The position numbers and the translations under genes were made by a program. From assembly GCA_963977015.1 (NCBI GenBank), contig CAXBMO010000028.1, positions 20,326 through 84,325 of the forward strand: a DNA stretch of 64,000 bases. The letters are read 5' to 3'. Shown here piece by piece: positions 2,120 to 64,000 of the stretch. The DNA comes from an uncultured bacterium (GTDB lineage Bacteria; Verrucomicrobiota; Verrucomicrobiia; Verrucomicrobiales; DEV007). The stretch's first letter is position 1. Every line of letters begins with the position of its first letter. Below the pieces are notes generated by a model. That model was not told where the DNA came from. It saw nothing but the letters and a program-made list of their open reading frames with translations, and made no database searches.

Positions 2120-2132
2120 GCGGGTTGAGCTG

Positions 2133-2856: not shown

Positions 2857-2860
2857 CCGT

Positions 2861-3316: not shown

Positions 3317-3346
3317 GGCCCATCAATTTTGGAGGGTTGGGGACGA

Positions 3347-40674: not shown

Positions 40675-40801
40675 GCGTTCCTTTCACTCACGGAAGCCAC
40701 TTTCTTCTTCAACCGAATGACAAAAAAATTCGTCAAACCCACGACTCCCCGGTTTGATGATTGCTTCAGATCCAGAGAAGTCTATCGTTCCACCCGCATC
40801 C

Positions 40802-42001: not shown

Positions 42002-42068
42002 TGTCGCAGCGGCTAACTAACCGGTTGGCTGCTCCTCCTCGAGAAAGCGCTTCTCGGCTGGCGCAGGT

Positions 42069-42458: not shown

Positions 42459-42537
42459 GAGGCCAAGCTAGCAAACGGGCGAGAGCCGCGACAAGACAAT
42501 CCGGGTAAGGAACCGCAGAAACTCCTCGCGTTCTCTC

Positions 42538-42702
42538 GCCGAACGTCCAACGGCAGTTCCTCAATGTGCAATTGGCAGTCGTGTCAGCTTCACCAAACAA
42601 CCCAACCCTCAGAGACTTTTACCAACAGTTGATCACGGTCCTTCACAAGCTACTCGCCACCCCTTCATTACTCTGGCCCGGAGCCACCACTGCTTGTTCG
42701 CC
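42538..42702 (-). other. Degenerate attC-like site
   Basis: Minus strand GGCGAACAAG...TTGGACGTTCGGC: ends resemble the intact attC sites, interior poorly paired. Confidence 0.45.
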
Positions 42703-43243: not shown

Positions 43244-43254
43244 TTTCTTAGCCT

Positions 43255-43833: not shown

Positions 43834-43955
43834 AACGTCAAGAATGAGTCACCTGCCACCGAGAACACGCGTAAATTGGAACAATAATGTTCGAACTGCA
43901 GCCATGCGTCAACGCCACCACTGGGCGCAGGTTGATCTCTACCCGCTTGTTCGGC
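43834..43955 (-). other. Integron attC site (126 bp when restored), interrupted at R' by the intron
   Basis: R'' GCCGAAC; GAG[A]TCA[A]CCTGC pairs with GCAGGTGACTC; R' is GTT plus AGGC at 43251-43254. Confidence 0.8.
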
Positions 43956-44539
43956 ATTTTTGGATAGGGTAGTAGTTTCGGACCCAGCAATCCCAACCAC
44001 AGCATTCCCGAAACAATGGATAGGCCGAATCCAACTCCAAATGGACGCAAGGTCCTGTGCTCCCGATGAAAGCGAAAAAGCGAAAAGGCCGCTACGAATG
44101 ACAAAGGCAAGAAGGTGAACGGCAACAAATGATGGTCCAACCCCAAAAACGTTGAAAGCCACGCTTCATCGGAATGAATCCCATCAAAAACCACCTTGCA
44201 CCAACGAAGCCCCGAAAGGGCAAAGGCAGAAAAAACCCACGTAGAATACCGCAAATTTGCGTTCTGATTCCTTCGGTTGCTGGAAAGCCACCAGATAGCC
44301 CACAATGCCAACACGAGCTCTACGAGAGGTCCAGATGCGGTAATAATGGCCAGGTTGGTTGGGTCTACTATTTGTGGCGGGAGGATCAGAGTTTCGGCAT
44401 AGGTAAGAATCGGATCAAAACCCAAAACCATCGCCGCAAAGCAATGCACGCACTCGTGGAGTAAAATCAGAATTGGCGGGAACACCCCCAAAATTGTAGC
44501 CGCAGCAATATAATGAGACTTTTGCTGCGCTGATATCAT
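43838..44539 (-). CDS. Membrane zinc metalloprotease (M50-like), gene cassette
   Basis: HECVH (HExxH) after a TM helix, ASGP and a downstream SD motif; the last ~39 codons run through the attC. Confidence 0.7.
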   Translation of the reverse strand: MISAQQKSHYIAAATILGVFPPILILLHECVHCFAAMVLGFDPILTYAETLILPPQIVDPTNLAIITASGPLVELVLALWAIWWLSSNRRNQNANLRYSTWVFSAFALSGLRWCKVVFDGIHSDEAWLSTFLGLDHHLLPFTFLPLSFVAAFSLFRFHREHRTLRPFGVGFGLSIVSGMLWLGLLGPKLLPYPKMPNKRVEINLRPVVALTHGCSSNIIVPIYACSRWQVTHS

Positions 44540-44559
44540 TTGTGCGGTGGAAGCGTTAC

Positions 44560-44586
44560 TTTTGCCAAACGTTTTATAGGCAAAAA
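44560..44586 (-). other. attI-like or first core site of the cassette array
   Basis: Minus strand TTTTTGCCTATAAAAC-GTTTGGC-AAAA; GTTTGGC nearly complements the cassette R'' GCCGAAC. Confidence 0.4.
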
Positions 44587-45393
44587 GCTTTCTGGACCAC
44601 TTCCATATTCAAATGGGATTCCCATGCTGTCGCCAGTGGTAACCCACTCCGGATTGTGGTGCGCGGTTTACCTTCATGTCGCAGAGGGAATCAGGTTTTG
44701 GCGCAGCCGTCAAGAGGAATGGTGTGAGGTTTTTGAGCCGGCGAGGAAACCGCGAAAACCAGAGCAAACCCGGAACGGTTTGATCATGCCATACTGGGCC
44801 GCCGACGGGTTTCATTATGCCATCATCAAACCTATCGCCTTGAGAACGCATTCACCCAATTACTTTGCCGAGTGCCGCGGGAGCAACCCCACTACACAAA
44901 CGCTCGCTGCGCAAACTCGCCAAACGACTCGGTGTCACCCTCCAGGAACTGCGGGATTATCACGACGCCAGTCCATCTGGTTTTACCTTCGCTCCGCTCA
45001 CGTCATGCTGCGAATGGCCCTTCTCCGGAATCCCGATCTAGGATACCGCTTCGCGGTGAGGCATTGTCTTAGCACAGCGCCTCCTTCCACTCGGGCTCAC
45101 CATCGTGGTGATGTCACCGTCACTGACTGAGCGCAAACAAGATCGATCCACCGCCTCGAATGTAACCGGCGCGAGGGCCGCCATCATCCTCCGCGTCATG
45201 AAGGCAAACGCCTACCCACCTAGCCAAGCCGTCCTAACACCTGCCGAATCGGCATGTCTTGAGAACATGCGGACTCGTCCCGCAGAGAACACGCGATCCA
45301 CTACCGTTCGTACTCCAATCAGGAGCTCAGGTGCCACCGTCCCGCTACCGATCGCATTGCTTGTGCGCGTCACCTTGGAGGGACGAGAGACGC

Positions 45394-45478
45394 TTCTCGC
45401 GGACTTTCAGCCCGCATTTTTTCGCATCCAAAATCCGGGGTTAAAACCCCGGACTGAGCACTTTCGGACTTTCAGCCC
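45394..45478. repeat. REP-like palindromic element
   Basis: Two CGGACTTTCAGCCCG copies flanking the hairpin CCGGGGTTAAAACCCCGG. Confidence 0.6.
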
Positions 45479-45542
45479 GGCGGGTCTGGCGCCTGGTTCT
45501 GCTTTTGGCCGCCACTCAGGAAAGGCACTCCCATTTATCGAA

Positions 45543-46718
45543 TCATTCGGGGGTTCCAACGAACTTGAGTATTTCCACCTTCGATTCCAACAGGCTATAC
45601 TCATAGGGAATCGCAAACGGCTTCGGCGAGGGTGGTGTGATAAAACCTTCATCCAACGTGAAGGGACACGAGGACGCTTCTTCGCTGACGATATCACCCT
45701 TTGAATAGAGCACTCCCAGAGGAGCTTCGTTGGGAAGAACATAGCGTATCACCCGTGGTCCTGAAACCCCGCTGTTGCATCCCATTTCGAATACGTTTGC
45801 TTCAGAGATAACCCGGCCTCTGACGCCAACCCGCATCCCCTCATCGTTGACATAGCCGATGACGTTGTTGAAGACATGGGCGTCCATATTGCGAAATTCA
45901 CCCGGCGAACGCCCATTGACCATCGTGTTGTAGAGGTTGTAGGCAATTGTGATCCGGCCTCGATCTTTGGTCCCGCCACTTCCGATCAGAGACGCAGTCT
46001 TCGTTTCGAAGAATGTGTTGTTCGAAAAGGTAATCAAATCTGGTTTGCCTCCGTGATTGTGATAAACCCCCAACGATTCGTCGGACATGCGTTTCCAAGT
46101 GTTGTTGTGGATCCAATAGTGCGACCCTCCCCAAATTTCCAATCCGTCAGTGGCGCCATTTTTGAAGTAGGGCGATTCGTATGTGTAAGGCCAACCCAAG
46201 TCTCCGACATGGGTGATGCCGACGATGATCACCTGCCCCTGCTGCGCATTGAGTTGTCCTGTTTTGGCCGGAGTCTGCACAGGGGGAAGCTTGATCCCCC
46301 GATCGTTGTTGGGTATTCCATACTGCCAGGTGATGGAAACCCCTCTGCCGTCGATCGTCTTATATTTGCCGATGGATGTAGAACCCGATGGAACGACCCA
46401 CGTCTGACCGTCGAGCGACGGGTTAAAATAGATCCACCTCGGAGTATCGTCGGTGATCGCGTTGAGGAGAGAGCCATCGGTCAAGCTTGTGATTTCCGTC
46501 CTGACACTATTCGCCCCGCCAATCGTCTCCGCACCGAACCCAAACCTCTGGGGCAATAAGCTCTCGATCCGCTGAGCGAAAGAAGGGAACGATTCAGATC
46601 CGGCGACTGGCGGCCGGTTTTCCGTAGCCATGGTTTGCGCAGTGCTGGGCGTCGACAAAAGCAGAACCCCCAAAAATAGGGCGCCGGAGATCAGGACTCG
46701 GGTTGTCGTGCGATTCAT
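45543..46718 (-). CDS. Secreted pectate lyase (PL1-like)
   Basis: Signal peptide; FGAETIGG, KTIDGRG, DGLEI..SHYWIHN, ITFSNN, RSP and HVFNN. Confidence 0.8.
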   Translation of the reverse strand: MNRTTTRVLISGALFLGVLLLSTPSTAQTMATENRPPVAGSESFPSFAQRIESLLPQRFGFGAETIGGANSVRTEITSLTDGSLLNAITDDTPRWIYFNPSLDGQTWVVPSGSTSIGKYKTIDGRGVSITWQYGIPNNDRGIKLPPVQTPAKTGQLNAQQGQVIIVGITHVGDLGWPYTYESPYFKNGATDGLEIWGGSHYWIHNNTWKRMSDESLGVYHNHGGKPDLITFSNNTFFETKTASLIGSGGTKDRGRITIAYNLYNTMVNGRSPGEFRNMDAHVFNNVIGYVNDEGMRVGVRGRVISEANVFEMGCNSGVSGPRVIRYVLPNEAPLGVLYSKGDIVSEEASSCPFTLDEGFITPPSPKPFAIPYEYSLLESKVEILKFVGTPE

Positions 46719-46863
46719 CTATTTCTTTGCAAGGCAGAACGTTTTCCAGGTGGCTGATCGGTTCAACAATGCCGGACGGCATTGGGCTGAGTTGACACAT
46801 TCAGGAAGGGGGTTCGTTGGTTTCGACCAGGAGGTTCCGAGGCGATGCGGAAATTTGCCAGCG

Positions 46864-48250
46864 TCAGGCCAGGATATCGGGAACGATGTTTCCGTAAACA
46901 TCGGTGAGTCGGAAATTCCGTCCCGCGTAGTTGTAGGTGAGGCGCTGGTGGTCGAGGCCGAGCAGGTGGAGAATCGTGGCGTGCCAGTCGTGAATGTGGA
47001 CGGGCTTCTCGACCGCTTTGTAGCCAAATTCGTCCGTCGCGCCGTGAACGTAACCGCCCTTGACGCCACCACCGGCCATCCACAGACTGTATCCCTTGTT
47101 GTTGTGATCGCGGCCGTTGCCGCCACCCTGAACATAGGGCGTGCGGCCAAATTCTCCGGCCCAGATCACGAGGGTATCCTTGAGCAATCCCCGCCGTTTT
47201 AAATCCGTGAGCAACCCGGCAATGGGTTGATCGGTCGCGACACAGGTCTTGGTGAGGTTCTCCTTGAGCAGAAAGTGATGATCCCAGTTAACCGGGGCGG
47301 TGACTTCCACAAAGCGCACTCCGGCTTCGCTCAATCTTCGGGCGAGGAGGCATTGCCTGGCAAAGCGATCATTCACGCCGGGTGCGCCGATTCCGTAGAG
47401 CCTCTCCGTTTCCTCGGTTTCGGAATGGAGGTCCAATACTTTGGGGACCTCATCCTGCATCCGATAGGCGAGTTCCAACGATTCAATCGCGCCTTCGATC
47501 TCCGGATTGAATCCATCGCGCTGGAGCTTCTGCTGATTGAGCTTTCGAATCAGTTCCAACTGGTCGCGCTGCTCCTGCCGACTAGTTCCGCCCTCCAGAT
47601 ACTTCAGTGGCGGCCCGGGTTCCTCGTCCCGTTTCAGCAAGGCGGCATACAGTTCCGGAATTTGGCCGCCACCGAGGCGCGTTCCCTGAAAAATCGCGGG
47701 AAGAAAGGCACTCCCATAGTTGCGCGCGCCTCCGAAGTCCGCCGGCGGGTTGAGGGTGATAAATCCCGGGAGGTTCTCGTTGCGGCTCCCCAGGCCATAG
47801 AGCGTCCACGCCCCCAACGACGGCCTGACGAACTGAAAACTTCCCGTGTGCATTTGCCCAAACGCCTGAGGATGATTGGGCAGGTCGGTCTGCATGCTGT
47901 TGATCAGGCAAAGGTCATCCGCATGCTTCGCCAGATTGGGAAACAGTTCCGAGATCCAGATTCCGGATTGACCGTGCTGGTGAAACTGGAAGGGAGATCC
48001 CAACAGGGTTGAGGCATAACGCCCGAGGTCAGCATTCTCGCCGGAGCGCCTCTGCAGCTCCGGCTTGTAGTCAAACGTATCGACATGCGAAGGGCCGCCC
48101 TTCATGCAGAGAAAGATGACGCGTTTAGCCCGGGCGGGAAAGTGCGTCCGTTGCGTGGTCGCCGCCTCCGCGGCAAGTGAGGCAAAGGCCAGGTAACCGA
48201 ATCCCGACGCGATCGACTTCAGGGCTTGGCGACGAGAGAAGCTGGGGAAG

Positions 48251-48261
<11 letters not shown>
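46864..48261 (-). CDS. DUF1501 domain protein (Tat-exported)
   Basis: SRRQAL Tat motif, AKRVIFLCMKGGPSHVDTFD, GEFGRTP and GRDHN. Confidence 0.9.
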
Positions 48262-50713
<2,452 letters not shown>

Positions 50714-50786
50714 GACTCAATCATGAGCGGTGGATCCAGAAATTGCAACCCAACTCGATCGCCCCGGCCGGGGCAGGAATTTAGGG

Positions 50787-51290
50787 GGCTTCGGGCATCC
50801 CTGCCGGGACGCATCCTGGCACCGCGTTTGTTCCGGTGGTTACGCTGCGCTTTACCGACCGGATAGGTTCGGGATGAGCCTCCGGCTCTCTACTCGATCC
50901 TTCCGACCAGCGATGATGGCTGTGACCAAGAGCGGTTGTCTCACGCTTTCAGCGCTCGCAAATGCGGGCATCTTGACCCGGGGCTTTGCTCGCTTGGGCT
51001 CGCGCACCCCGGGCTGGCATGTTCTGGCCTTTCAGGCCAGTGCAACCGAATCACCCGTCGATTCTGGCGGGCAAATCCCAACGGGATTTCGGATGAAAAG
51101 CCCAGTGTTGCCGAAGGCTACGCTGGGTTTACCGGCCCAAGCACGAATCCAATCCTGAAGGGATTGCGGAAGGCTTCGGGCGTCCCTGCCGGGACGCATC
51201 CTGGCACCGCGCTTGGTCCGGTGGTTGCGCTGCGCTTTACCGACCGGCTAGGTTCGGGATGAGCCTCCGGCTCTCTACTCGATCCTTCCG
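50787..51290. repeat. REP mosaic: two 119-bp direct repeats enclosing a third copy of the transposase-flanking element
   Basis: 50787-50905 and 51172-51290 are near-identical; 51074-51168 matches 2761-2856. Confidence 0.85.
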
Positions 51291-51304
51291 GCCAATGGTT
51301 TGGC

Positions 51305-51346
51305 GCTGAAAGCTGAAAGCTGAAAGCTGACCGCTAACCGCTAACC
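51305..51346. repeat. Heptamer tandem repeat
   Basis: (GCTGAAA)3 GCTGACC (GCTAACC)2. Confidence 0.85.
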
Positions 51347-51417
51347 TGACCAAGAAAATCACTTGCCAGACCATCTTCGCTTATTAGTTTCCCTCCTATC
51401 GGTTTGGCAAATCACTC

Positions 51418-51699
51418 ATGAAAACCCTTCTTTTTCTCCTAGTTTTTGGACTCGCTGTGAACTCGTATGCAGGAAGAATCACCGTCAAAGTCGTCCATTC
51501 GGATCAGAGCCCGGCTTCCGGTGCGAAGGTCGTTCTCTCCCTCGACGGTGGCGGCGTCACGAACGCGGTTCGGACGGGTTCCGATGGGAAGGCCACGGTT
51601 TCCTGGAGCAGCAGCGCGGTCTCAGGAAAGGTGATCGTCAATGGATCAACGGTGTTTCGCGGACGACTCCCGGATCACGTCACGGTCAAAAAACCGTAG
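51418..51699 (+). CDS. Small secreted beta-sandwich protein (carboxypeptidase regulatory-like)
   Basis: Signal peptide; PASGAKV...TGSDGKA pattern. Confidence 0.7.
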   Translation: MKTLLFLLVFGLAVNSYAGRITVKVVHSDQSPASGAKVVLSLDGGGVTNAVRTGSDGKATVSWSSSAVSGKVIVNGSTVFRGRLPDHVTVKKP

Positions 51700-51717
51700 C
51701 CAGGGTGGTGCCTGGCT

Positions 51718-52932
51718 CTAGAAAAACCGCCGGGCCGGGACGATCGGACGCGGCCGACAAATGCGCTGAATGCATTCGTCGAAGCTTTCTTCATTGCTGA
51801 GAATTCCGATCTCGACGCGAAGGAAATAAATGGGGACGTCGACCCGCGGCAATCGGGGAAAGCGGACCGAATCCTTCTCCGTCGTCACAATCATGTCGAC
51901 GCCTTGATCGATGCACTCATTGATGAAGCCGAGAACTTCCTGCTCGGTGTAACGGTGGTGATCCGTGTAACGCCGGGTGGAAATGATGCGCGCGCCGAGG
52001 CGCTCAAGCCCTCCCTCAAAGCTCTCGGGAACGGCAATCCCGCTGATGGCGCCAACTTCTTGGCCCTTTAAGATGTCAAGCGGATGCCGCTCCTGCGTGC
52101 CGAGCCGTTCCAGGTACTTGGGCTCATGGGTGCACTCGATGACTTCTGCGGTGCGATTGTGCTTTCGAATCCGCTTGATGAGTTCGTCATTGGGCTCGCC
52201 ATTGCATTTGGTGATGAAGATGTAGCTGGCGCGTTTCAGGTTTTTGGGTGGCTCGCGAAGCGTCCCCCGCGGCAGGAGATGCTCGTTCCCAAACGGTTGA
52301 TAGCGATCAATCAGGACGACGTCGAGGCGATGGCGCAATCGCAGATATTGCAGGCCGTCGTCGAGGATCAGGGTGTCAGCGCCAAACTCGCGAATCGCGT
52401 GCAACCCGCCTTTGACGCGGTCCTTGTCCGTGATGACGACCACGTCGTTGAGGTTCGACGCCAGCATGTAGGGCTCGTCACCCGCCGTTTTGGAATCGAG
52501 GAGGAGCTGCTTGCCATCGTGGACGATCCGGGGCGGGTCGATTTCCGGAGCTTTGCCGGAAAACCGGCGCTGGAGGCGTTTGGTGAGGGGCGGTTTGACG
52601 GATTTGTAGCCGCGGCTCAGGACGGCGACCTTGCGCCCTCCGTCCTGCAACGCACGGGCAAATTTTTCGACCACCGGCGTCTTTCCGGTTCCGCCCACGG
52701 TCAGGTTACCAATGCTGACGACGAGACAGCCGAGATTGCGCTCGCGCATGATCCGGTAGCGATAAAGCCGCAACCGCGCAGAGACGAGACCCTTGTAAAT
52801 CTGCGACATCGACCCCAAAAAGGCTCGCAACGCGGCCGCACGTTTTCCCCTCCGTCGTTCCAGAACGACGTCGATGGCAAACTGTTCCAGGGCTTCCAGC
52901 GTTTCTTTCAATCCAAAACCACCATGTGTCAC
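51718..52932 (-). CDS. lpxK: Tetraacyldisaccharide 4'-kinase
   Basis: [29 protein letters not shown] and LLPRGTLRE. Confidence 0.95.
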
Positions 52933-53049
52933 CCTTGACGGAAGACAAGCACCCGGTCGGGGAATTTGATGTCGCGACTTGCTTTTTACGACACAGCACT
53001 GTTGAGAAAGGTTGAAACCTTTTCAAACTCACTCAGCCCCTGATATCCA

Positions 53050-53832
53050 ATGACCCGTTCCGACAATCGCACCCTTGATCAACTCCGCACCATCACGTTT
53101 CAACCTGACATCGCCCCTCACGCCACCGGATCGGTGTTGGTGGGTTTTGGCGATACCCGCGTGATTTGCAGCGCAATGATCGAGGACAAAGTGCCGCGTT
53201 GGATGATGCAGCAGAATGTGCCGGGCGGCTGGCTGACGGCGGAGTACAACATGCTTCCGTATTCCACCCTCGACCGGAAGCAACGCGACATCACGCGAGG
53301 CAAAATCGACGGTCGAAGCAGTGAGATTCAGCGTCTGATCGGGCGTTCGCTGCGCGCGGTGGTCGATCTGAGGGCGCTGGGCCAGCGGACGCTGTGGCTG
53401 GATTGCGATGTGCTCCAGGCCGACGGCGGCACCCGAACCGCTTCAATTACCGGGGGCTGCGTTGCCGCGGCGATTGCGTTCAACCGCCTGATTGATCAGG
53501 GGAAGCTGAAAAAATCGCCCCTCAAGCAATTGGTCGCCGCCGTGAGCGCGGGAATTGTGGAGGATACTGCGATGCTCGACCTGTGCTACGTCGAGGACCG
53601 CGATGCGCAGGTCGATTTCAACATAGTGATGACGGAAGGGCTGGAGTATGTCGAAATGCAGGGATCCGGCGAGGAAGCCGTTTTCACCCATGATCAATTG
53701 CTGGAAATGACCGAGCTTAGTAAAAAAGGCATCCAGGAACTGGTGGAACTGCAGCGACAGGCGATTCGATCCGTCGACGGTGAAGCCAAACCCGACGCCT
53801 TGGAAGGATTGGCCGATCACTTCAAGGGCTGA
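53050..53832 (+). CDS. rph: Ribonuclease PH
   Basis: GWLTAEYNMLP, EIQRLIGRSLR and CDVLQADGGTRTASITG. Confidence 0.97.
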   Translation: MTRSDNRTLDQLRTITFQPDIAPHATGSVLVGFGDTRVICSAMIEDKVPRWMMQQNVPGGWLTAEYNMLPYSTLDRKQRDITRGKIDGRSSEIQRLIGRSLRAVVDLRALGQRTLWLDCDVLQADGGTRTASITGGCVAAAIAFNRLIDQGKLKKSPLKQLVAAVSAGIVEDTAMLDLCYVEDRDAQVDFNIVMTEGLEYVEMQGSGEEAVFTHDQLLEMTELSKKGIQELVELQRQAIRSVDGEAKPDALEGLADHFKG

Positions 53833-53837
53833 GAAGG

Positions 53838-54347
53838 CTACGAGTCCCGATCTTCCAGCTTGGCGACGATGGCATCGTGCATCGTTTTGCAATACGGCAC
53901 CTGCAGCCGTGTGGCGAGGATTTCGCGCGAACGTTCCAGGCTCCCCCACTCCACCACTTCCATAGTCAATTCCTGGCGGCCCCAGGCTTTGACCGCTTCC
54001 AATTCCGGGCGGTAGATGTCGACGACGTCGTTACCGACCAACGCTGAGCCATAGTCCTCGACCACGAATCGCTCCGCATGATCGGTTAGTCGAAAAACGG
54101 TTCCCACCGGGAATCGCGACCAATCCGCAGCGGCTGAATTGTGCTCCTCCTCTGCTTGAAGAGGAGCGCCGGAAGCGGTGACCAAACCCCACTTTTTCTG
54201 ACTTTCAGAAGTGTGGGTGTACGCCGTGGTCTCAATGTTAAGCGTCGCGACGGGCGCTACTTTCTGCCGGCAGGATACGAGCCCGACCAGGCTTCCCACA
54301 GCAAGCAACCCCAATAAAATTTTCGAGTTCATCCGTTTTGCGACCAT
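53838..54347 (-). CDS. 3D-domain lipoprotein
   Basis: LVSC lipobox; TTAYT, AAADWSRFPVGT and VEDYGSAL..VDIY. Confidence 0.8.
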   Translation of the reverse strand: MVAKRMNSKILLGLLAVGSLVGLVSCRQKVAPVATLNIETTAYTHTSESQKKWGLVTASGAPLQAEEEHNSAAADWSRFPVGTVFRLTDHAERFVVEDYGSALVGNDVVDIYRPELEAVKAWGRQELTMEVVEWGSLERSREILATRLQVPYCKTMHDAIVAKLEDRDS

Positions 54348-54354
54348 GAATCTT

Positions 54355-55281
54355 TCAATCGCGCAACGGAAAGTGGACCGTGGTAACGGTTTCGTTTTCC
54401 GGCACATCACCGGGTGCGGTTTCGTAGATTTCAAAGGGATGAATGGATCGGCTTTGCTTGATGAGGCGGTTTCGGCTTCGCATCACCCCGGCCGACCACG
54501 CGTTGCCCAGATACTGGTAGGAGCCCGTGTGCTGAATCGGAAACGTCATGCAACTGGGAATCTCCCCGCTGATGAAGCCTTCGGGAAGCTCGGCCGGAAC
54601 GGACTCGACCGGAACCGCGGACGTGTATTCCACAATCTGCTTCGCCGGTTGCCACTTGTGATACACCGAAAGCATTTTGCCGGCCGGTGTCACCTCATTC
54701 GTGCATACCCAATCCTGGATTTTCCCGAAATCCGCCATCATGTGAGAGCCAATCTCCGGAATCGCACATCGCGTTCGTACACCGACGAACTCAACCCCCT
54801 CAAACGGTGCACTGCCGGGAAACTCCAGTTTGGAAGGAACGACGCCGGTCTCGAGCCGGGCTTTGAGCATTGCCAATCCCCGCTCATAGTCCATCCCAAT
54901 CAGCGCGACCATCATCGACTTCATCCAGAACATGAACATGGGCAATTCGCTGTCCATGCTCCAGGTCAGCCTGGTGCCGCCATCTTCGGTTGCCAAATCA
55001 AAGCGAACATCGGCGAAGGACTTCCAGGGTTTCAAAAAGGTGAGGCGAGATACGATCCACTCGGGCGACTGATCCTTCACGACCTTCATTTCGCCCGCGC
55101 CACAAACCGGTCCATCCCAACTGTAGGCCGCGCCATCCTCCGCATACGTGACTTTGCAGCCGGGATCCGTGATGATCCAGGGAGACCACTCCGGCCATGA
55201 TTGAAAATCCCTGACATGATCGAAAACGACTTCTCGAGGAGAATCCATGACGATCGATTTTTCGACGTGAAATTTGGGCAT
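54355..55281 (-). CDS. SRPBCC plus GyrI-like effector-binding protein
   Basis: DFQSWPEWSPW and IGMDYERGLAMLK; C-terminal HTGSYQYLGNAW and PFEIY. Confidence 0.85.
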   Translation of the reverse strand: MPKFHVEKSIVMDSPREVVFDHVRDFQSWPEWSPWIITDPGCKVTYAEDGAAYSWDGPVCGAGEMKVVKDQSPEWIVSRLTFLKPWKSFADVRFDLATEDGGTRLTWSMDSELPMFMFWMKSMMVALIGMDYERGLAMLKARLETGVVPSKLEFPGSAPFEGVEFVGVRTRCAIPEIGSHMMADFGKIQDWVCTNEVTPAGKMLSVYHKWQPAKQIVEYTSAVPVESVPAELPEGFISGEIPSCMTFPIQHTGSYQYLGNAWSAGVMRSRNRLIKQSRSIHPFEIYETAPGDVPENETVTTVHFPLRD

Positions 55282-55406
55282 GGTCGTGGGTGGTTTGGCT
55301 GGCTGTCAGGATCGAACCTCACCACGGTGAGTCAAACGGAAAGGAATGCGCGGGTCGGATTGCCAACACCCCTCCATCGCATTTGATGGGCAGGACGAAA
55401 CGGGAT

Positions 55407-55422
55407 TGGCACGTTTCCGGCT
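55407..55422 (+). promoter_or_regulatory. Possible sigma-54 promoter of the opg operon
   Basis: TGGCACGTTTCCGGCT: GG-N10-GC with a weak -12 element. Confidence 0.35.
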
Positions 55423-55580
55423 ACAAGCCCTATCAACCAGCCTACGCGACCTGAAAACTGCGCGCGTCCGTTGCAGATTCCAAGCCGCAACCCGAATTTC
55501 CTGTGCAAATAGCCACAACTATCGTGCTTGCAAGTAGCCAGCCTTCGCGTATGGCGCAGTCTGCAAACAATTTGATCATA

Positions 55581-57173
55581 ATGACACGAAAGAACTGGGT
55601 CCTCCTTGGAGTGGCCGCCAGCCTAGCGGTGACGTCCGCAACGGCGCTCTCCCAAGGAATCAACCGGGAGAAGATCGATTCCGAGCGGATTGAGGCGATC
55701 GCCAGCGAAGCCGCCTCGACGCCATTCAAACGGCCGTCAGAAAGTCGACCGATCCCCAAGTCCCTCCAGGACCTCACCTATTCCAATTACCGCCGAATCC
55801 AGTTTCGCCGCGATCAGGCGCCGTGGAAGGAGGACAACCTCAATTTCCATCTCCACTTTTTTCACCCCGGCTACCTCTACCGGGACACCGTCCTGCTGCA
55901 CGAATTCACCAACAGCCACGTTCAGCAGATCCGGTTCCTCAATCACTTGTTTGATTACGCGGACAGCGGAATCGATGGCGATCAATTGCCGGACAAGCTC
56001 GGCTATGCCGGTTTTCGCCTGCTCTATCCGCTCAACCAAACTGAGAACTATGACGAAGTGGCCGTGTTCCAGGGTGCGAGCTACTTCCGGATGCTGGGCG
56101 CGGGACAACAGTATGGCCTCTCTGCGAGGGGACTGGCTCTCAACAGCGGTCGCGGTGATGCGAAGGAGGAGTTTCCGCTTTTCACGCGGTTCTGGATCGG
56201 CAAACCCGTGGGGAAATCGAAAAAGGTTCATCTATACGCCCTGCTGGAAAGCGAAAGTGTCACTGGTGCCTACGAGTTTGTCATTGCTCCCGGCAAAGAA
56301 ACCGTCGCCGACATTCGCGCCACCCTCTACTTTCGCGAAATCCCCAAATCAATCGGGGTCGCGCCCCTCACCAGCATGTTCTGGTTTGGCGAAAACACCC
56401 ATCGCAAGCCGGACGATTTCCGCCCCGAAGTCCACGATTCCGACGGTCTCATGATCCGAAGCGGCAGTGGCGAATGCATTTGGCGTCCGGCGTCGATGGA
56501 CCCGAGTCGCATCCATTTCAATGTCTTCAGCATGAAGGAGGTTCAAGGCTTTGGCCTGTTGCAACGCGACCGCGAACTCTCCAGTTACCACGATCCGGAG
56601 GCCAACTATCATCATCGGCCCAGTGTCTGGATCGAACCGAAAAAAGGGTTCGGTGAGGGCAATGTCGTGCTCGTCGAATTGCCGACGAGCGACGAGACGG
56701 CAGACAACCTGGTCGCCTATTGGGAGCCTGCGGCGAAACCCACGCTCAATGAGCCTTTCCGCCTCGAATACCGGCTGAAATGGTCGGATGCACAGAACCC
56801 GGCCACGGCCGGGGCCATCACCAAATCCACCCGCACCGGGTTGCTCCCGTGGCGCCCGGGCGAACGGCTCATGGTCGTCGATTTTGAGGGGACCTCGCTG
56901 AACGCTCTCTCCCCGGAAAATCCGCCCGAAGCGATCGTGCAGGCGATCGATCCCAAGGTCGCGGAAGTGGCCGACGTCACGGTGCACTACGTGAAGGCCC
57001 TCCAGCAATGGCGACTGACGTTTTTTGTCCGCCCACCGAATTTCACGGCGCCGGAAGGCGGGAATCATACCATGGTTCCGCCCAAACTGGAACGCAGCGC
57101 CGAGTTCCGCGCCTTTCTCAAACAAGGCAAAGACATCCTCACCGAAACATGGACCTACCGGATCGACCCCTAG
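55581..57173 (+). CDS. opgG: Periplasmic glucan biosynthesis protein G/D
   Basis: FQGASYFR, YGLSARGLA, APLTSMF, RPEVHDSDGL and GFGLLQRDR. Confidence 0.92.
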   Translation: MTRKNWVLLGVAASLAVTSATALSQGINREKIDSERIEAIASEAASTPFKRPSESRPIPKSLQDLTYSNYRRIQFRRDQAPWKEDNLNFHLHFFHPGYLYRDTVLLHEFTNSHVQQIRFLNHLFDYADSGIDGDQLPDKLGYAGFRLLYPLNQTENYDEVAVFQGASYFRMLGAGQQYGLSARGLALNSGRGDAKEEFPLFTRFWIGKPVGKSKKVHLYALLESESVTGAYEFVIAPGKETVADIRATLYFREIPKSIGVAPLTSMFWFGENTHRKPDDFRPEVHDSDGLMIRSGSGECIWRPASMDPSRIHFNVFSMKEVQGFGLLQRDRELSSYHDPEANYHHRPSVWIEPKKGFGEGNVVLVELPTSDETADNLVAYWEPAAKPTLNEPFRLEYRLKWSDAQNPATAGAITKSTRTGLLPWRPGERLMVVDFEGTSLNALSPENPPEAIVQAIDPKVAEVADVTVHYVKALQQWRLTFFVRPPNFTAPEGGNHTMVPPKLERSAEFRAFLKQGKDILTETWTYRIDP

Positions 57174-57787: not shown

Positions 57788-59953
57788 ATGAACGGCCCCT
57801 CGCCCTACCCGCCCATTCGCGCCCGAACCGCCCGCCTCGTCATGCTCCTTACCGTCGTTGTGCTCACGACGTTGGGAATCCTCTTGATGACCGATTTCAT
57901 CTTTCGCGTGGGCTTTACTTCGCCGCGTCTCATCTTTCTCATCCTCTTCGGCATCCTCTTTACCCTGGTCACGACCGGATCGGCCCACGCTTTTTGGGGA
58001 TTCTGGGTCCGCCGCACCCGTGGACTGAAATCCCGCATCGTTCGCGCAAGCGAAGAAGTCCCCGACACCAACGTCACCCACGCCGGACGCACCGCCCTCG
58101 TCTTTCCGGTTTATAACGAAGATCCTCAGCGGGTTTTCGCGGGAATCGAAGCCGTGTTTGAAGACCTCAACCTCGTGGACCCAAATCACGATGTGGACAT
58201 CTACATCCTGAGCGACAGCACCAACCCGGACAATTGGGTCAAAGAGGAAATGGCCTGGGTTCAACTCTGCCGTCAGGTCGAGGGATTTGGCCGCATCTTC
58301 TACCGGCGCCGCGCCAAGAACGTCAATCGCAAGGCCGGAAACATCGCGGATTTCTGCACCAAATGGGGCGGCGACTATGCCTACATGATCACGATGGACG
58401 CCGATTCGATCGTGAGCGGAAAGGCCATTCTCCAACTCATTGGCATGATGGATCGCCGCCCGACCGCCGGGTTGATCCAAACCGCGCCACGTCTCTTTGG
58501 CGGGCAATCCTTCTTCGCCCGTGTCCAGCAGTTCGCCGCTCGTTTTTATGGTCCGATTTTCCTGGCGGGCCTAGATTGGTGGCAGGGTGCGGCGGGCAAC
58601 TATTGGGGCCACAATGCGATCATCCGCCTCGCGCCATTCACCGATTACTGCGACCTGCCGGACCTCCCCGGCAAGGAACCCTTTGGCGGCAAGATCCTGA
58701 GCCACGATTTTGTGGAAGCCGCGCTCATGGTCAAAGCCGGTTGGGAAGTTCTCCTCGCCTACGACATTGAAGACAGCTGGGAGGAAGGGCCGCCCTCCCT
58801 CATCGATCACGCCAAGCGAGATCGCCGCTGGATGCAAGGCAACCTTCAGCACACCTGGCTGCTCTTTGCCCGTCGCATCCACAGCTGCAACTGGGTTCAC
58901 CTCTTGATGGGCATTGCCGGCTACCTCAGCTCCTGCATCTGGTTTTGCTTCCTGATGCTCAGCCTCTGGATCGCCTGGCTCGACAAGTCCAGCCGCGTCA
59001 CCCTCTTTCCCGTCGATGGATTTGTCGGAGCCCAGTTGCATCTCGATGTGCGAACCCACGGCCTGATCATCTTTCTCTACACCATCTGCCTCCTCTTCAG
59101 TCCAAAGGTTCTTGCCATCATCGACCTCATCCTCTGCCAGCGCCTCCGGGAGTTCGGCGGGCTCATCCGCGCGCTCATGAGCTCCTTCATCGAGACCCTT
59201 TTCTTCACCTTGATTGCCCCCATCCTGATGCTCTTTCACACGAAGTTCTTCTTCTGGCTCATCGTTGGGCGCAGCGTTAGCTGGAGCACCCAGAATCGCG
59301 AGTCGACCGGCACGAGTTGGGGCGAGGCCGCCCGCACCCACGGCGGACAAACCGTCTTCGGGGCCGTCTTCATTCTCATCTCTCTCTGGCTCGATCCCCA
59401 ACTCTTCTGGTGGATGATTCCCATCAATGCCGGACTCGTCCTCAGCATCCCGCTTTCGGTCTGGAGCAGTAGCGAAAAGCTGGGACGCTGGTTTGCCTCC
59501 CTCGGCTTCTTCCGGACGCCGGAATCCTTTCAACCGGCAAAAGTCCTCACTGAAATCGAACCGGACATCCACAATTTCGATACCTTGCGGTTCATTTTTC
59601 CCGAGGCCGATCACAGCGGCATCACCGCCGCCATTGTCGATCCCTATGTCAATGCCCTCCACGTCACCCTCCTCAAACAACCAACCGTTTCTGAAGCAGG
59701 ACAAGCAAGCGACGACAAAGGGGACCGCCTCATGACGCAAGGCCCCAAGGCCCTGACCCGCGAGGAGACGCTCGAAACACTTTCCGATCCCGACCTGATG
59801 CAGCAGCTCCACCGCCGCGTCTGGTCGCGCAGCTCGGGCAAACACACCGGGTGGTGGCGTTACCACGTCGAAATGTATCGCACCTCCGAATGGATGAAAA
59901 AGCGCTCCTGGATCGCGCCCAACACGGCACGAAGCGGGTCAGGTCCAAGGTAG
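57788..59953 (+). CDS. opgH: Glucans biosynthesis glucosyltransferase H
   Basis: PVYNEDP, ILSDS, RKAGNIADF, DADS, NYWGHNAI, LSHDFVEA and RDRRWMQGNLQH. Confidence 0.96.
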   Translation: MNGPSPYPPIRARTARLVMLLTVVVLTTLGILLMTDFIFRVGFTSPRLIFLILFGILFTLVTTGSAHAFWGFWVRRTRGLKSRIVRASEEVPDTNVTHAGRTALVFPVYNEDPQRVFAGIEAVFEDLNLVDPNHDVDIYILSDSTNPDNWVKEEMAWVQLCRQVEGFGRIFYRRRAKNVNRKAGNIADFCTKWGGDYAYMITMDADSIVSGKAILQLIGMMDRRPTAGLIQTAPRLFGGQSFFARVQQFAARFYGPIFLAGLDWWQGAAGNYWGHNAIIRLAPFTDYCDLPDLPGKEPFGGKILSHDFVEAALMVKAGWEVLLAYDIEDSWEEGPPSLIDHAKRDRRWMQGNLQHTWLLFARRIHSCNWVHLLMGIAGYLSSCIWFCFLMLSLWIAWLDKSSRVTLFPVDGFVGAQLHLDVRTHGLIIFLYTICLLFSPKVLAIIDLILCQRLREFGGLIRALMSSFIETLFFTLIAPILMLFHTKFFFWLIVGRSVSWSTQNRESTGTSWGEAARTHGGQTVFGAVFILISLWLDPQLFWWMIPINAGLVLSIPLSVWSSSEKLGRWFASLGFFRTPESFQPAKVLTEIEPDIHNFDTLRFIFPEADHSGITAAIVDPYVNALHVTLLKQPTVSEAGQASDDKGDRLMTQGPKALTREETLETLSDPDLMQQLHRRVWSRSSGKHTGWWRYHVEMYRTSEWMKKRSWIAPNTARSGSGPR

Positions 59954-60550
59954 GGCGTTTTTAGTAGTGGAGGTTTAGCCAATGCAACGAGGAGATTTGG
60001 GTTCCGGTAAGAACCTGTGAGGGAGCAGAGCGAGCTTGGGGAACGTTTGAAAATGATGACGGCCCCGCAAGTTGTTCCTCTTCTTGGAGGGTTGGCTTCC
60101 CGTGATTTTGAGATGCGGCGCTTGTCCTGACGGGAAATACCCGAAACCGGTAACCAAATGACCACTTTCCGAAAAGCTCCTTGACCACCCCGCATTTCTC
60201 AGATTTTCTCTGTGGCATGATGAGCAGGTTTACCAAGGGAACGCCCTCCCCTCAAAAGCGATCAATCCGGTTTCAAATGTTCCGTGATAGTTTGACAAAT
60301 TGGCAGGGAGAATTCCTCGCAAGCGTTCCGCGTTGACCCACGAATCCCGAACCTTCCTGCCGTTTTCCTGAAAACCAGAATTCACCTCGCACCGCAACCA
60401 AGCTCCCATTCCAGCCCCCCCACATCGCCCAAACCCCGATCATGAAAGGTCAACCACCACCTCCTCCGCTCAATTCTCTCAATACACCATTCTCCCTGCA
60501 CGAATGTTGAATCGAAAAGGATATCCCCAGTTCGCTGAAGAAAATTGGAA

Positions 60551-61471
60551 ATGAGCACCCCAAAGGCATTCGTTTCATATTCGTGGGATGGTGACTCTCA
60601 CAACGAATGGGTCGCCGCATTGGCTACCCAGCTTCGCGGCGACGGGATCGAGACGATGCTTGATCAGTGGCATGCCGTGCCGGGTGACCAGTTACCAGCG
60701 TTCATGGAGAAGGAGATCCGCGAAAACGATTACGTTCTGATAGTCTGTTCTCCCAACTACCGTCTAAAATCGGACGAAAGGAAGGGTGGAGTTGGGTATG
60801 AGGGAGATATTATGACTGCGGAAGTTCACACCCAAGGTAATCACCGAAAGTTTATTCCCATACTTGCCCGCGGATCATGGGATGAATCGGCACCTTCCTG
60901 GCTAAAGGGTAAGTACTATATTGATCTCAGCACTGCTGAGCGAAAAGCAAAGAACTATCCTGATCTTACCGCTACGCTTCTAGGAACCAGAGCTGCTGCG
61001 CCACCTGTGCAACCGGCCAAAAAGAAGGGGATCACAGCCCCTCCAGAACAGGTATCACCAGATGAGCCACTGAAAATTGTTGGAGTAATCGTTGATGAGG
61101 TTACGGAGCCAACTATGGATGGGAATCGCGGATGCGCCTTATACACTGTTCCGTTTCGTCTGAATCGGCGGCCTTCGACGATTTGGTCTGAGATTTTTAT
61201 TCACAGGTGGAATTCCCCTCCTTGTTTTACCTCGATGCATAGGCCGGGCATCGCGTCGGTTTCTGGTGCGAAGATCATCCTAGATGGCACGACGATCGAA
61301 GAAGTGAAAAAGTATCACAGGGAGACCCTGGTTCTCTGTGTTGACTTAGCAAATCAAGAGGAGGCGAAATACCTCGAACGGAAGCGCCGGGAGAAAGACC
61401 GGAAGCGCGAGCAAACAGAGGCCCATCGGAGATCGGTAGAAAATCTAACGGATGATTTGTTCTTCGACTAA
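60551..61471 (+). CDS. TIR/SEFIR-domain protein, integron-type cassette
   Basis: AFVSYSWD, LDQW..PG, VLIVCSPNY, GGVGYE and KFIPIL; preceded by GTTCGCT at 60530 and followed by an attC. Confidence 0.88.
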   Translation: MSTPKAFVSYSWDGDSHNEWVAALATQLRGDGIETMLDQWHAVPGDQLPAFMEKEIRENDYVLIVCSPNYRLKSDERKGGVGYEGDIMTAEVHTQGNHRKFIPILARGSWDESAPSWLKGKYYIDLSTAERKAKNYPDLTATLLGTRAAAPPVQPAKKKGITAPPEQVSPDEPLKIVGVIVDEVTEPTMDGNRGCALYTVPFRLNRRPSTIWSEIFIHRWNSPPCFTSMHRPGIASVSGAKIILDGTTIEEVKKYHRETLVLCVDLANQEEAKYLERKRREKDRKREQTEAHRRSVENLTDDLFFD

Positions 61472-61476
61472 CAAGC

Positions 61477-61602
61477 AGCGAACAAGACGCGGGTGATCAA
61501 CTGCCTGCCCACACTGAATCGGAATCGAAATGAACGTTCAATCTTCAACCCAAAAGTCGGAGCGCATTGTCGGCAGGCCGTGACATCGTTTTGACGATAC
61601 TA
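61477..61602 (+). other. attC site (126 bp) with R' core reading GAT instead of GTT
   Basis: R'' AGCGAAC; GTG[A]TCA[A]CTGCCTGCC pairs with GGCAGGCCGTGACAT; ends TTGAC-GATACTA. Confidence 0.7.
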
Positions 61603-61639
61603 TGCCGCAAATCAATCGAGGAAAACCAGTATCGAAGTC

Positions 61640-61882
61640 ATGTCAGAACCAGTTGTGATATATGTTATGTTGGAAGGAGTAAGAATCCTTGTGGAGCTTG
61701 ATAAGAATTTCGGGATAGCTTGCCCGCATTGCAAGGTCCAAAGTTGGGTACTTCAAAATCTACGAGGAGAGAGGCTCCCGCAAAGTTGGATCGGCAAGGT
61801 GTTCAAACGGGTGACGTTGGTCTGCGGATCATGCAAGGCTGAGTTTACCGTCAAGGCGAAACGAGCACAATCGCGTGGTTGA
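61640..61882 (+). CDS. Small zinc-ribbon protein
   Basis: CPHC and CGSC pairs in 80 aa. Confidence 0.6.
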   Translation: MSEPVVIYVMLEGVRILVELDKNFGIACPHCKVQSWVLQNLRGERLPQSWIGKVFKRVTLVCGSCKAEFTVKAKRAQSRG

Positions 61883-61883
61883 A

Positions 61884-63833
61884 ATGAAATTCGTTTTGTG
61901 CGGGCTGAGCCTACTTTTCACAACGTTCGCTGCCAACCTGTCGGCGGAAGTGGTGGTCTTGACAGACCTCCAAGGTAGAGATGTCGAGGCGGAAATTCTT
62001 CGCATTGAGGGGCAAAGCGTTCGTATCAGGCGACCGGCTGATGGTCGAGAATTCGTCTTGCCGCTCTCGAATTTGAGCGTTGATAGCCAACTCCTGGTAA
62101 AGAACATGGAGGAACGACTGAAGCGGGTTTCGACGGCCACGATCACCGGCGATTGGCGACGATTGGAAGTGGAACAACCTGGCAATATGGATGCGGCGAC
62201 GGTCTGTGGAATGGAGACCGGCGGTGCCGAGACTCGGCGAACAACAGGTGTTTACTCCCTTCATGCTCCCATTGGTTCCTGGATTCGAGCGAAGTTTGAG
62301 ACCAATCGTGGCCAAGTCGAAACGTGGGTTCGTTTTCATGGAAATGCTACTCACTGGAAATTTACCCTGGACGAGAACAAGGTGCTTCTCAGTAAGGATG
62401 GTGCCGAACCTCAAGTGGTAGGAATCTCTCTCAGAGAGGGAGAAGTGTTCGAAATCGACTTCAATTCCGATCCGGACCGTTATGCCCAACACCTTTGTCT
62501 GAATGCTTACTCGGACCAACTTCAAGGTATGGCCCCACATCTCTCCAGATTTACTGCCTTCTGTATTCGGGACCGAAATCCGACCGCTGCGAGTGTTCGA
62601 GCCATTGCTGCGCTTGATCCTGAGGCATTAGGGTTGGTCGTTGACGCTGAACACCTCCCTGACTTCGCACAGTCTGCCGGGAAAAAACTGCAAGCGCTGT
62701 CACTGGTCATTCGAAATCTGCCACCGGTCAAAGATGGCGATCGCTTGACGACGGATCCCATTACCTTGCCAAGCCTGCCAAGTCTCCAGTATTTCTATGT
62801 CTATTTCGCCCTTAGTGCTCCCCCCGATTTTGGGCAAACCCTGGTCAATTCGACTCCGAATTTAAGGGCCGTCTACATCGCCGTCGGGTCCCCCCGTGCC
62901 AAGTTTGCTGAGGTCACGGAACTGGATAAGCTTGTCCATCTTGAAGCCGTCAACGTTCCCTGGGCCATCAAAATACTCCCGGGTGAGTTGATCAAGTTAC
63001 CCAACTTGAAGAGTTTCCGTTTCTATTCAGGAACGCTGGATCGGTCAGACCCCGACTTCAAATCCTTATCGAAGATTCAGGGGTTGATCCATCTCAACAA
63101 TCGACAGGACGGGTTCGCGGGAAGCGTGATGGAAGAATGGGCCGATCTCGGCAATCTCCAAGAACTCCTTGTTTTGGAAACGTTTCGCGCAATCGATTTC
63201 ACAAAGCTACGAGACGTGGAGGTGTTGCGTTTGCGCCGTAGTAGCTCACATCACGATGATTTTGAGATCAAGGATTTGGGGGGATTGAACAAGCTTTGGT
63301 TTCTAAAGCTGGACCTAGCTTCGCAGGACGAAATTGATGCGTTAGGTGCGCTTCCGAATGCTTCTCAGGTCGAATATCTGTTCTTGGATAGAGGCACGTT
63401 TGATGATCTAACACCGCTCACCTCGATGAAGAATTTGCGGGCCTTAAGCGTTTTTAAAGCGGATTCCATGGTCCGGGAGGTGGATCTCAGCCTATTTCCC
63501 AAGCTGGAAAGGGCTCATCTAAGAGAGTTGAACGAGCTGACTTCAGTCGTGGGAATGGCGGGACATCCATCGCTGATTGAAATCAGCTTGAACCTCCCGA
63601 AATTGAAGACTTTAGGACCTCCCGGTGGCAGTCCTGTGCTCAAAGCTTTCGCGATGAGAAACATGGATGACATTACCGACCTCAAAGCGATTCAGGGAGC
63701 GGCTAATTTAACATCCGTCATTTTCTCCAACTGTGATGGGCTGGCTCCTCCGCTGGAGATCGATCTTGATCAAATCGATCGGGTATACGTGAGAGGGTGC
63801 GATTCTTTAGCCGATCGATCGATTGGCGAGTAG
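61884..63833 (+). CDS. Secreted SHD1-like plus leucine-rich-repeat protein
   Basis: Signal peptide; TDLQGRDVEAEI..DGREFVLPLSNLSVDSQ (SHD1-like); LxxLxxL repeats in the C-terminal half. Confidence 0.8.
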   Translation: MKFVLCGLSLLFTTFAANLSAEVVVLTDLQGRDVEAEILRIEGQSVRIRRPADGREFVLPLSNLSVDSQLLVKNMEERLKRVSTATITGDWRRLEVEQPGNMDAATVCGMETGGAETRRTTGVYSLHAPIGSWIRAKFETNRGQVETWVRFHGNATHWKFTLDENKVLLSKDGAEPQVVGISLREGEVFEIDFNSDPDRYAQHLCLNAYSDQLQGMAPHLSRFTAFCIRDRNPTAASVRAIAALDPEALGLVVDAEHLPDFAQSAGKKLQALSLVIRNLPPVKDGDRLTTDPITLPSLPSLQYFYVYFALSAPPDFGQTLVNSTPNLRAVYIAVGSPRAKFAEVTELDKLVHLEAVNVPWAIKILPGELIKLPNLKSFRFYSGTLDRSDPDFKSLSKIQGLIHLNNRQDGFAGSVMEEWADLGNLQELLVLETFRAIDFTKLRDVEVLRLRRSSSHHDDFEIKDLGGLNKLWFLKLDLASQDEIDALGALPNASQVEYLFLDRGTFDDLTPLTSMKNLRALSVFKADSMVREVDLSLFPKLERAHLRELNELTSVVGMAGHPSLIEISLNLPKLKTLGPPGGSPVLKAFAMRNMDDITDLKAIQGAANLTSVIFSNCDGLAPPLEIDLDQIDRVYVRGCDSLADRSIGE

Positions 63834-63947
63834 TTCGATTGGATCACATTTCAATCCACTTTGCGAAGTTGTTCTTCGCCACACTTGCAAGGTTTCAGGA
63901 GGTCGGTGTGGAGGCTCATCGTCCATTACGTACAGAATTCGCACTAA

Positions 63948-64000
63948 TGACCTGATCCAGAAAGCTGGACACCTCAAAACGATAGTTCTGCTAGGATTTG
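63948..64000 (+). mobile_element. Probable IS3-family terminal inverted repeat (element continues beyond the window)
   Basis: TGACCTGATCCAGAAAGCTGGACAC resembles IS3-type ends (5'-TG...TGGACA). Confidence 0.4.

Follow-up and report, generated by a model that had tools for sequence, protein, structure and literature searches.

A 64-kb stretch of DNA (64,000 nt of contig CAXBMO010000028.1; hereafter the window), from the genome of an uncultured bacterium whose closest named relatives are Verrucomicrobiales, very probably contains a single-gene integron cassette at positions 60531-61596. The gene encodes a protein with an N-terminal SEFIR/TIR domain, and we read the whole as a captured cassette encoding a SEFIR-type defence protein that depletes nicotinamide adenine dinucleotide (NAD+). 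The probability of this combined reading is, in our judgement, roughly 0.7. An initial annotation of the window had claimed a single-gene integron cassette here, and the claim agrees with the boundaries of the element, the family to which its attC site belongs, the covariation within that family, the complementarity between its R'' box and its start, and the presence of related genes in canonical cassettes.

The kinds of element involved are already established. Integron cassettes encode phage defence (10.1101/2024.07.02.601719; 10.1101/2024.07.02.601686), lone cassettes termed SALINs exist and genomic insertion sites are known (10.1101/2022.09.11.507474), and the bacterial SEFIR (bSEFIR) system has been validated (10.1101/2022.05.11.491447). 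What stands out in the window is a clear example of such a cassette, a minimal protein of SEFIR plus C-terminal domain that is conserved across phyla, and a repeated leader without an integrase. It offers a clean and checkable case of a phage-defence gene as an integron cassette beyond the well-studied Vibrio and clinical integrons.

Cassette boundaries and the attC family

Sites of the attC type follow the plan R''-L''...L'-R', with cores RYYYAAC and GTTRRRY, a crossover at G/TT (the slash marks the point of exchange) and extrahelical bases on the '' arm. A cassette opens with the reverse complement of its own R'', which lets the circular form restore a paired R box. This architecture is partly echoed in the introduction of 10.1101/2022.09.11.507474.

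The cassette of the window holds one promoterless open reading frame (ORF) and its attC (Table 1). The ORF starts with ATG at 60551, with a TTG at 60545, and its stop codon (61469-61471) is separated from R'' by 5 nt. GTTCGCT at 60530-60536 and AGCGAAC at 61477-61483, which had been pointed out in the initial annotation, are both present and complementary at 7 of 7 positions; the hexamer TTCGCT that opens the cassette is an exact reverse complement within the R'' box. The end at 61602 given in that annotation proved to be the exact end of a 126-nt repeat family. R' itself was first placed at GTTTTGA (61588-61594), until the family alignment showed TTTGAC to be spacer and moved R' to the position in Table 1.

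Comparison with related loci delimits the same element. In what follows, numbers with G denote genomes (G000 being the genome of the window), those with C contigs, and those with L loci. The two closest loci, L014 (83% protein identity) and L007 (79%), can be aligned with the window only from TTCGCT or TTAGCT onward. L014 remains alignable through the attC, which in this locus is also matched by the family covariance model described below (48.4 bits), and then diverges downstream. Among public sequencing runs, none of RNA was listed as containing the sequence. Four sets of DNA contigs from one study gave short identical pieces, of which two span the boundary between leader and cassette at 60530 (60460-689 and 60491-641) and one spans the end of the ORF and the start of the attC (61373-523). 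This cover is thin, with no piece over 61596-61602 and no recombination joint, and the sets possibly come from the same sample as the window, so they do not count as independent support. The first 15-20 nt of the cassette (60531-60550, TTCGCTGAAGAAA... before the ATG) are nearly identical among different cassettes, namely on contigs C5 and C36 of the same genome and in loci L014, L007 and L024. This common start hints at a 5' leader or ribosome-binding stretch that is conserved together with R'' boxes of the AGCGAAC type.

When the window's genome and 30 related ones were searched at the DNA level, 61475-61596 proved to be a repeat. The resulting family has 19 copies of 126-127 nt each, five from the window's genome and 14 from five related genomes. 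Conservation starts at (G/T)AAC and ends just past ACGTT, and the outer 4 nt differ from copy to copy. R' starts with GTT in 17 of the 19 copies, with GAT in the window and with GGA in the copy on C5. The consensus folds into a long imperfect hairpin of 27 pairs, with single-base bulges confined to the 5' arm (alignment columns 16, 20, 24 and 34). When the copies are aligned (18 of them, the C6 copy being left out), pairing is found in 94.6% of cells, compared with 27-51% when the partner arm is slid. A covariance model built from these 18 copies, and thus from the family itself rather than taken from the curated model of IntegronFinder, scores the window site at 130.5 bits (E 3e-35) and finds 14 sites in the window's genome at E up to 1. 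Across 19 aligned model matches, diverged copies included, compensatory changes occur in 23 of the 27 pairs (100 cells), 88.1% of cells pair compared with 28-40% when slid, and none of 500 shuffles reaches any of five measures, in an alignment fitted to the covariance model, which favours structure. A search of Rfam gave no match in 59800-64000.

The attC of the cassette is the only strong family site in the window. A weak match to the model (30.7 bits, E 1e-6) lies on the minus strand at 43830-43955; its boxes read GCCGAAC (R'') and GTTGTGC (R'), and the 25 nt that follow it are identical to those past the attC at C6:342917-343042. Elsewhere in the genome, four family attC sites lie on the minus strand of C36 (G000:C36:38209-44670, 38.2-44.7 kb). 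They belong to an integrase-less array close to the end of that 46.7-kb contig. The array also holds at least one shorter site of another type, the 3' end of which is 482 nt upstream of the site at 42716-42840.

A rival reading takes the 126-nt unit for a palindromic repeat of an unrelated type (REP, MITE or terminator-like) and the GTTCGCT/AGCGAAC pair for a coincidence. Taken alone, the pair is indeed near chance, given that an exact inverted repeat of at least 8 nt arose in 273 of 2,000 trials with random stretches of 120 nt and 83 nt placed about 920 nt apart. Other short dispersed repeats also abound in the genome (60036-60138, for example, has at least 40 BLAST matches), and the single-copy DNA fold of 61474-61597 is unexceptional against shuffled sequences (z 0.38 and -0.04), although single-copy fold energies are uninformative for long-loop sites. 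However, the complementarity recurs. We examined 15 sites in the window's genome (the 14 model sites and the weak second site of the window) and found an exact reverse complement of the 7-nt R'' at most 2 kb upstream in 12, compared with 4 of 15 downstream; under permuted pairings of R'' and flank the count averaged 3.3 and peaked at 9, with 0 of 2,000 reaching 12. This recurrence places the complementarity beyond chance in its context. The outer 4 nt of R'' vary and yet match the start of their own unit in these 12 sites, and the G/TT at the matching junctions is preceded either by the 3' end of another attC or by a conserved leader. Consecutive sites obey the corresponding rule, as in G002:C367, where R' in one site is GTTCGGC and R'' in the following site is its exact reverse complement, GCCGAAC. 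A palindromic repeat also fits poorly with sequence conservation that halts at AAC and GTT, with bulges on one arm only, with the intact integron integrase of this genome and with canonical core sites at homologues in other phyla. Hence, we regard a coincidental repeat as very improbable and the 126-nt unit as an attC.

Table 1 Features of the cassette locus in the window (slash, crossover point).
Feature	Coordinates	Strand	Details
Conserved leader, candidate attI-like platform	60280-60530	+	About 250 nt, ends at crossover G 60530; from alignment with the C31 and C30 copies
Left junction	60530-60536	+	G/TTCGCT; G is the last base of the leader, TTCGCT (6 nt) opens the cassette
Integron gene cassette	60531-61596	+	1,066 bp; single promoterless ORF and attC, to the crossover G
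ORF, SEFIR/TIR protein of the bSEFIR kind	60551-61471	+	306 aa; ATG 20 nt past the crossover
SEFIR/TIR domain	60560-60988	+	Residues 4-146; invariant Asp38 (LDQW) and Glu84 (GGVGYE)
Pro-rich linker	60989-61075	+	Residues 147-175; low model confidence
C-terminal domain	61076-61468	+	Small alpha/beta unit (about residues 176-248) and terminal helix of about 50 residues (249-300)
attC, lineage-specific family	61477-61602	+	126 nt; R'' AGCGAAC 61477-61483, R' GATACTA 61596-61602

The SEFIR protein and its predicted role

The N-terminal domain is matched over residues 5-130 by the Pfam families TIR_2 (E 2e-21, 77.2 bits) and SEFIR (E 5.6e-18, 66.1 bits). Against solved structures, compared by sequence, the order is the other way, with SEFIR at 89.8 bits and the best TIR at 23.2 bits. 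The published selection of bSEFIR proteins took those with a stronger match to SEFIR than to TIR by HHsearch (10.1101/2022.05.11.491447). The PADLOC profile for bSEFIR (PDLC03957) matches the ORF with 212.1 bits (E 6e-63), of which residues 1-150 alone give 206.9, so that this check, proposed in the initial annotation, returned a match that falls entirely within the SEFIR domain. Among solved structures, the best sequence match is the SEFIR domain of B. cereus (PDB 5y8e / 5y8f; 5y8e E 1.5e-24, residues 4-153), and 5y8e is also the top Foldseek match (E 1.2e-07, 33% identity). The two share a stretch that reads RKGGVGYE here and RRGGVGTE in 5y8e. Unlike the protein of the window, 5y8e is an isolated domain, and it is therefore silent on the C-terminal domain.

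The annotated Glu in GGVGYE, Glu84, was borne out as a conserved residue: together with Asp38 it is invariant in 40 of 40 aligned homologues. In the full-length structure model, which is mediocre (mean pLDDT 70.9), it lies about 15 residues past the strand at 61-67 and near the start of the helix at 81-93. We take Glu84 to be the putative equivalent of the catalytic Glu in TIR NADases.

A Pro-rich linker had been annotated as well and was found where Table 1 places it, poorly modelled. The C-terminal domain, by contrast with the full-length model, is predicted well: modelled alone, the last 141 residues give pLDDT 89.2 and pTM 0.78 and form a unit of sheet and helices followed by the long helix. 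The annotation called this domain uncharacterised, and so it appears here, since residues 166-306 match no Pfam family, no PADLOC family at E up to 1 and, in Foldseek against the PDB, nothing at E 0.001 or better. In a VIA fold search, NFU1 came top with Z 5.6 (rmsd 3.9, 83 aligned), six chains had Z of at least 5 and none had 8 or above, and comparison with the Atlas gave scores of 0.80 only, so no fold is assigned. The domain could be a sensor or an oligomeriser, as the annotation proposed; a two-copy complex prediction scored 0.29 against a mark of 0.42.

A profile built on the C-terminal domain matches 689 cluster representatives (E 0.001 or better). The proteins range from 118 to 680 aa, and in nearly all of them the domain is C-terminal. 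TIR_2 precedes it in all 10 of the longer proteins that we sampled from 150 listed, 7 of which also scored for SEFIR, and the extra length of those 10 is a variable N-terminal extension. This constant pairing suggests that the C-terminal domain is a fixed companion of TIR/SEFIR and not an interchangeable sensor. The 306-aa form is the minimal version of the SEFIR plus C-terminal-domain family, and so compact a module is a small and tractable target for asking how SEFIR NADases switch on.

The closest characterised relative is the bSEFIR system (Bacillus sp. NIO-1130; PDLC03957), which shares with the cassette gene an N-terminal SEFIR domain (207 bits, residues 1-146), the conserved Asp and Glu, and the single-gene format. 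The two differ in length, 306 aa here against a profile of 412 positions, and in the C-terminal domain, which that profile does not match. B. subtilis gains protection from phi29 through a SEFIR protein (10.1101/2022.05.11.491447). In another description, SEFIR acts as a single protein whose N-terminal SEFIR domain brings about the depletion of NAD+, and phages with a NARP1 pathway overcome it (10.1101/2024.02.11.579819). By this likeness, we place the cassette product in the SEFIR branch of TIR-like phage-defence proteins, as a streamlined member. During infection the protein would assemble through its SEFIR domain, possibly also through the C-terminal domain and the long terminal helix, and would then hydrolyse NAD+ using Glu84 and so abort the infection. 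Judged from sequence comparison, an NADase function in NAD+-depleting defence is probable.

It is unlikely that the protein is instead a SEFIR/TIR scaffold or signalling protein, working by protein-protein interaction or by synthesis of a signal nucleotide for an unseen partner. Such a role would suit a C-terminal half that differs from the PADLOC bSEFIR profile and a locus without a defence island, and the role first proposed for bacterial SEFIR domains, which 10.1101/2022.05.11.491447 cites, was that of general interaction domains. It sits less well with the 207-bit match of the SEFIR domain to the bSEFIR profile, with a Glu that is invariant in the homologues, or with a cassette that holds no second gene. 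Moreover, accessory defence genes show the pattern seen here: sparse occurrence in the own order, 60-80% identity across phyla and carriage on a cassette.

Horizontal spread and comparison with known systems

The protein has close homologues far outside its order. A word-index protein search returned 2,420 matches, and the best 120 of these 2,420 are 62-97% identical and nearly all 305-309 aa long. Fifteen loci in named genomes (52-83% identity) cover Verrucomicrobiales, Latescibacterota, Terriglobia, Nitrospirales, Binatia, Arenicellales, Phycisphaerales, Caldilineaceae, Saprospiraceae, Chitinophagales, Tritonobacter and Anaerolineae, and 31 further loci come from metagenome contigs. Within the window's own order, a full-length copy was found in 2 of 151 genomes, one of them with an in-frame TGA, and six more genomes match the SEFIR domain only (34-43% identity). 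The guanine-plus-cytosine (GC) content of the window is about 58% before 60000, where it drops to about 50% and remains low as far as the contig end. Cross-phylum homologues, rarity in the own order and the drop in GC together indicate horizontal spread of the gene. That so many phyla share the protein at 60-80% identity suggests that cassettes carry defence genes from one phylum to another.

The start/R'' relation was also examined at the homologues, in 22 distinct full-length loci with both flanks (the duplicates L018, L045, L023 and L022 and truncated or fused matches were excluded). In five of the 22 (the window, L013, L017, L024 and L026), an exact GTTNNNN precedes the ATG by 21-31 nt and its complement follows the stop by 3-14 nt, against a permuted mean of 0.48 and with 0 of 1,000 permutations reaching 5. 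When one mismatch is allowed, the count of 8 of 22 is barely above that of permuted pairs (mean 3.6; 9 of 1,000 reach 8). Several homologue sites end in the canonical GTTAGGC or GTTAGGT. Anchored-stem scoring for R' in the homologue loci gave no usable ranking.

The cassette resembles the phage-resistance cassettes described from mobile integrons (BRiCs) and from sedentary chromosomal integrons in being a compact promoterless defence gene with its own attC behind a platform, and streamlined versions of larger systems are typical of those cassettes (10.1101/2024.07.02.601686; 10.1101/2024.07.02.601719). It differs in standing alone behind a leader without an integrase, with no array beside intI, and in a genome related to Verrucomicrobiales. 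The main texts of both papers mention no SEFIR cassette, although their supplementary tables may list one, and a literature search, judged by titles, found no paper that links SEFIR with integron cassettes, where again supplementary tables may list cases. A second likeness is to SALINs and insertions at genomic (attG) sites (10.1101/2022.09.11.507474), which share the single attC, the lack of a nearby integrase and a right-hand junction, G/AT, that fits GWT. Unlike those, the cassette has on its left flank a sequence of about 250 nt that is repeated seven times, and not an arbitrary genomic site.

Leader, integrase and genomic context

BLAST and a motif scan together found seven copies of the leader in the window's genome, on C28, C6 (twice), C19, C30, C31 and C36, and it also precedes cassettes in the relative G001. 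The leader holds a conserved TTGACA box at 60292-60297. Its copies end in ...AAAAGGAT...CAG (TAG in the C36 copy), followed by TT and unrelated sequence. A 22-nt hairpin just before the junction is present in the other six copies and missing from that of the window. Because there are seven copies that always end at the crossover G, the leader resembles an attI platform more than a random attG, and from this anatomy we infer an attI-like platform.

An integron integrase is encoded on contig C1 (TIGR02249, 291 bits against a cut-off of 265, at C1:216518-217420, without internal stops). The gene spans G000:C1:216131-217426, and a canonical GTTAGGC lies just upstream, at about 216003. The covariance model found no family attC anywhere on C1, and BLAST and the motif scan found no leader-like sequence next to intI. 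In the proposed course of events, the C1 integrase would recognise the attC as a folded single strand, the cassette would have been captured by IntI-mediated recombination at the G/TT (or G/WT) point that ends the leader, and as a first-position cassette it would be transcribed from the leader.

Tentatively, and with rather more doubt than belief, the genome and at least the relative G001 may run a 'distributed integron', in which an integrase without an array of this attC family serves in trans at least seven integrase-less leaders, each an orphan attI plus promoter with cassettes of its own. The SEFIR cassette would then be one such capture, from a family of 306-aa minimal SEFIR plus C-terminal-domain proteins spread among many phyla in cassette form. 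If it is a working recombination site, the repeated integrase-less leader could be a new way of organising integron platforms. In G001, locus L078 (G001:C5:125500-132500) carries at 1826-4255 a leader copy followed by a Xer/IntI-like tyrosine recombinase and a split IS91-family transposase, and after this insertion two cassettes with family attC sites. The recombinase was considered as a leader-linked IntI and rejected: it scores 144 bits against the cut-off of 265 and stands beside IS91 transposase fragments, that is, in an IS insertion.

The description of the cassette as complete, made in the initial annotation, stands for its boundaries and its attC but not for the R' core, which is GAT, nor for the leader, given the missing hairpin. 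Among the 15 sites of the genome, R' begins with GTT in 10, with GAT in four (the window, C31, C11 and C6:220280) and with GGA in one. To our knowledge, the AAC and GTT triplets are the one conserved sequence requirement of attC sites. GAT lacks the conserved triplet, so this copy may be inactive; its excision is doubtful and would probably be hard, and the cassette may be fixed in place. GAT is either the mark of insertion into a G/AT target or a later point mutation. The combination of G/TT on the left with G/AT on the right is what insertion into a G/AT target would leave, and integrase-mediated insertion at genomic sites follows a GWT consensus (10.1101/2022.09.11.507474).

These features allow for a fossil, an element that arrived as a cassette and is now fixed, the GAT core and the missing leader hairpin having inactivated both sites, with the gene kept or decaying as an ordinary chromosomal gene. 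We would give this slightly less than even odds. The window departs from 17 of 19 family copies at R' and from the other six leaders in its hairpin; its closest orthologues, L007/L023 and G105, have an in-frame stop, and a pseudo-attC with a crossover mismatch has been described for a defence homologue outside integrons (10.1101/2024.07.02.601719). Against decay, the ORF of the window is intact and keeps all residues that are invariant in the family, and GAT at the same place in 4 of 15 genome sites fits insertion into G/AT targets under the GWT consensus better than random decay. A fossil is in any case compatible with the captured defence cassette as regards origin and function. The 79%-identical orthologues themselves, L007 (at 6328-6330), L023 and G105:C55 (L082), have their in-frame TGA at codon 110 and are probably pseudogenes.

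Besides the near-chance pair, the unexceptional single-copy fold and the GAT core, several observations weigh against a captured defence cassette. Within Pfam, TIR_2 scores slightly above SEFIR. An exact start/R'' match is absent from 17 of the 22 homologue loci, which indicates that the gene also lives outside recognisable cassettes. No second family site is found downstream of the cassette within the window and no integrase on its contig, and a consensus scan of 59900-61900 for sigma-70-like promoters returned 0 sites. Because the C-terminal half has no PADLOC match, the argument for a defence role comes entirely from the SEFIR domain. PADLOC also matches 0 of 10 ORFs at 40754-57170, so that, of the annotated defence gene, the SEFIR homology (bSEFIR profile and 5y8e) held up and a supporting locus context did not. 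With no defence island at the locus, the mobile context of the gene is the cassette itself.

The 20 kb upstream encode LpxK, RNase PH, MdoG, MdoH and other housekeeping proteins. Downstream, in a low-GC stretch (61640-63833), an 80-aa zinc-ribbon ORF with two CxxC pairs and the ORF of a 652-aa leucine-rich-repeat protein overlap, the latter at its start, and neither has a PADLOC or curated family above cut-off. TCAAAAC at 63974-63980 was considered as the R'' of a second cassette holding these two genes; no family site lies in 63834-64000, and we regard the heptamer as a coincidence. The window ends with the contig. Two further repeats lie between mdoH and the leader. The dispersed repeat at 60036-60138 (about 100 nt) has its matches on many contigs at 75-92% identity; it is unrelated to the attC family and has no Rfam match. 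Directly past the mdoH stop, a repeat of about 70 nt (59966-60036) has about eight copies in the genome and many in G010 and G003.

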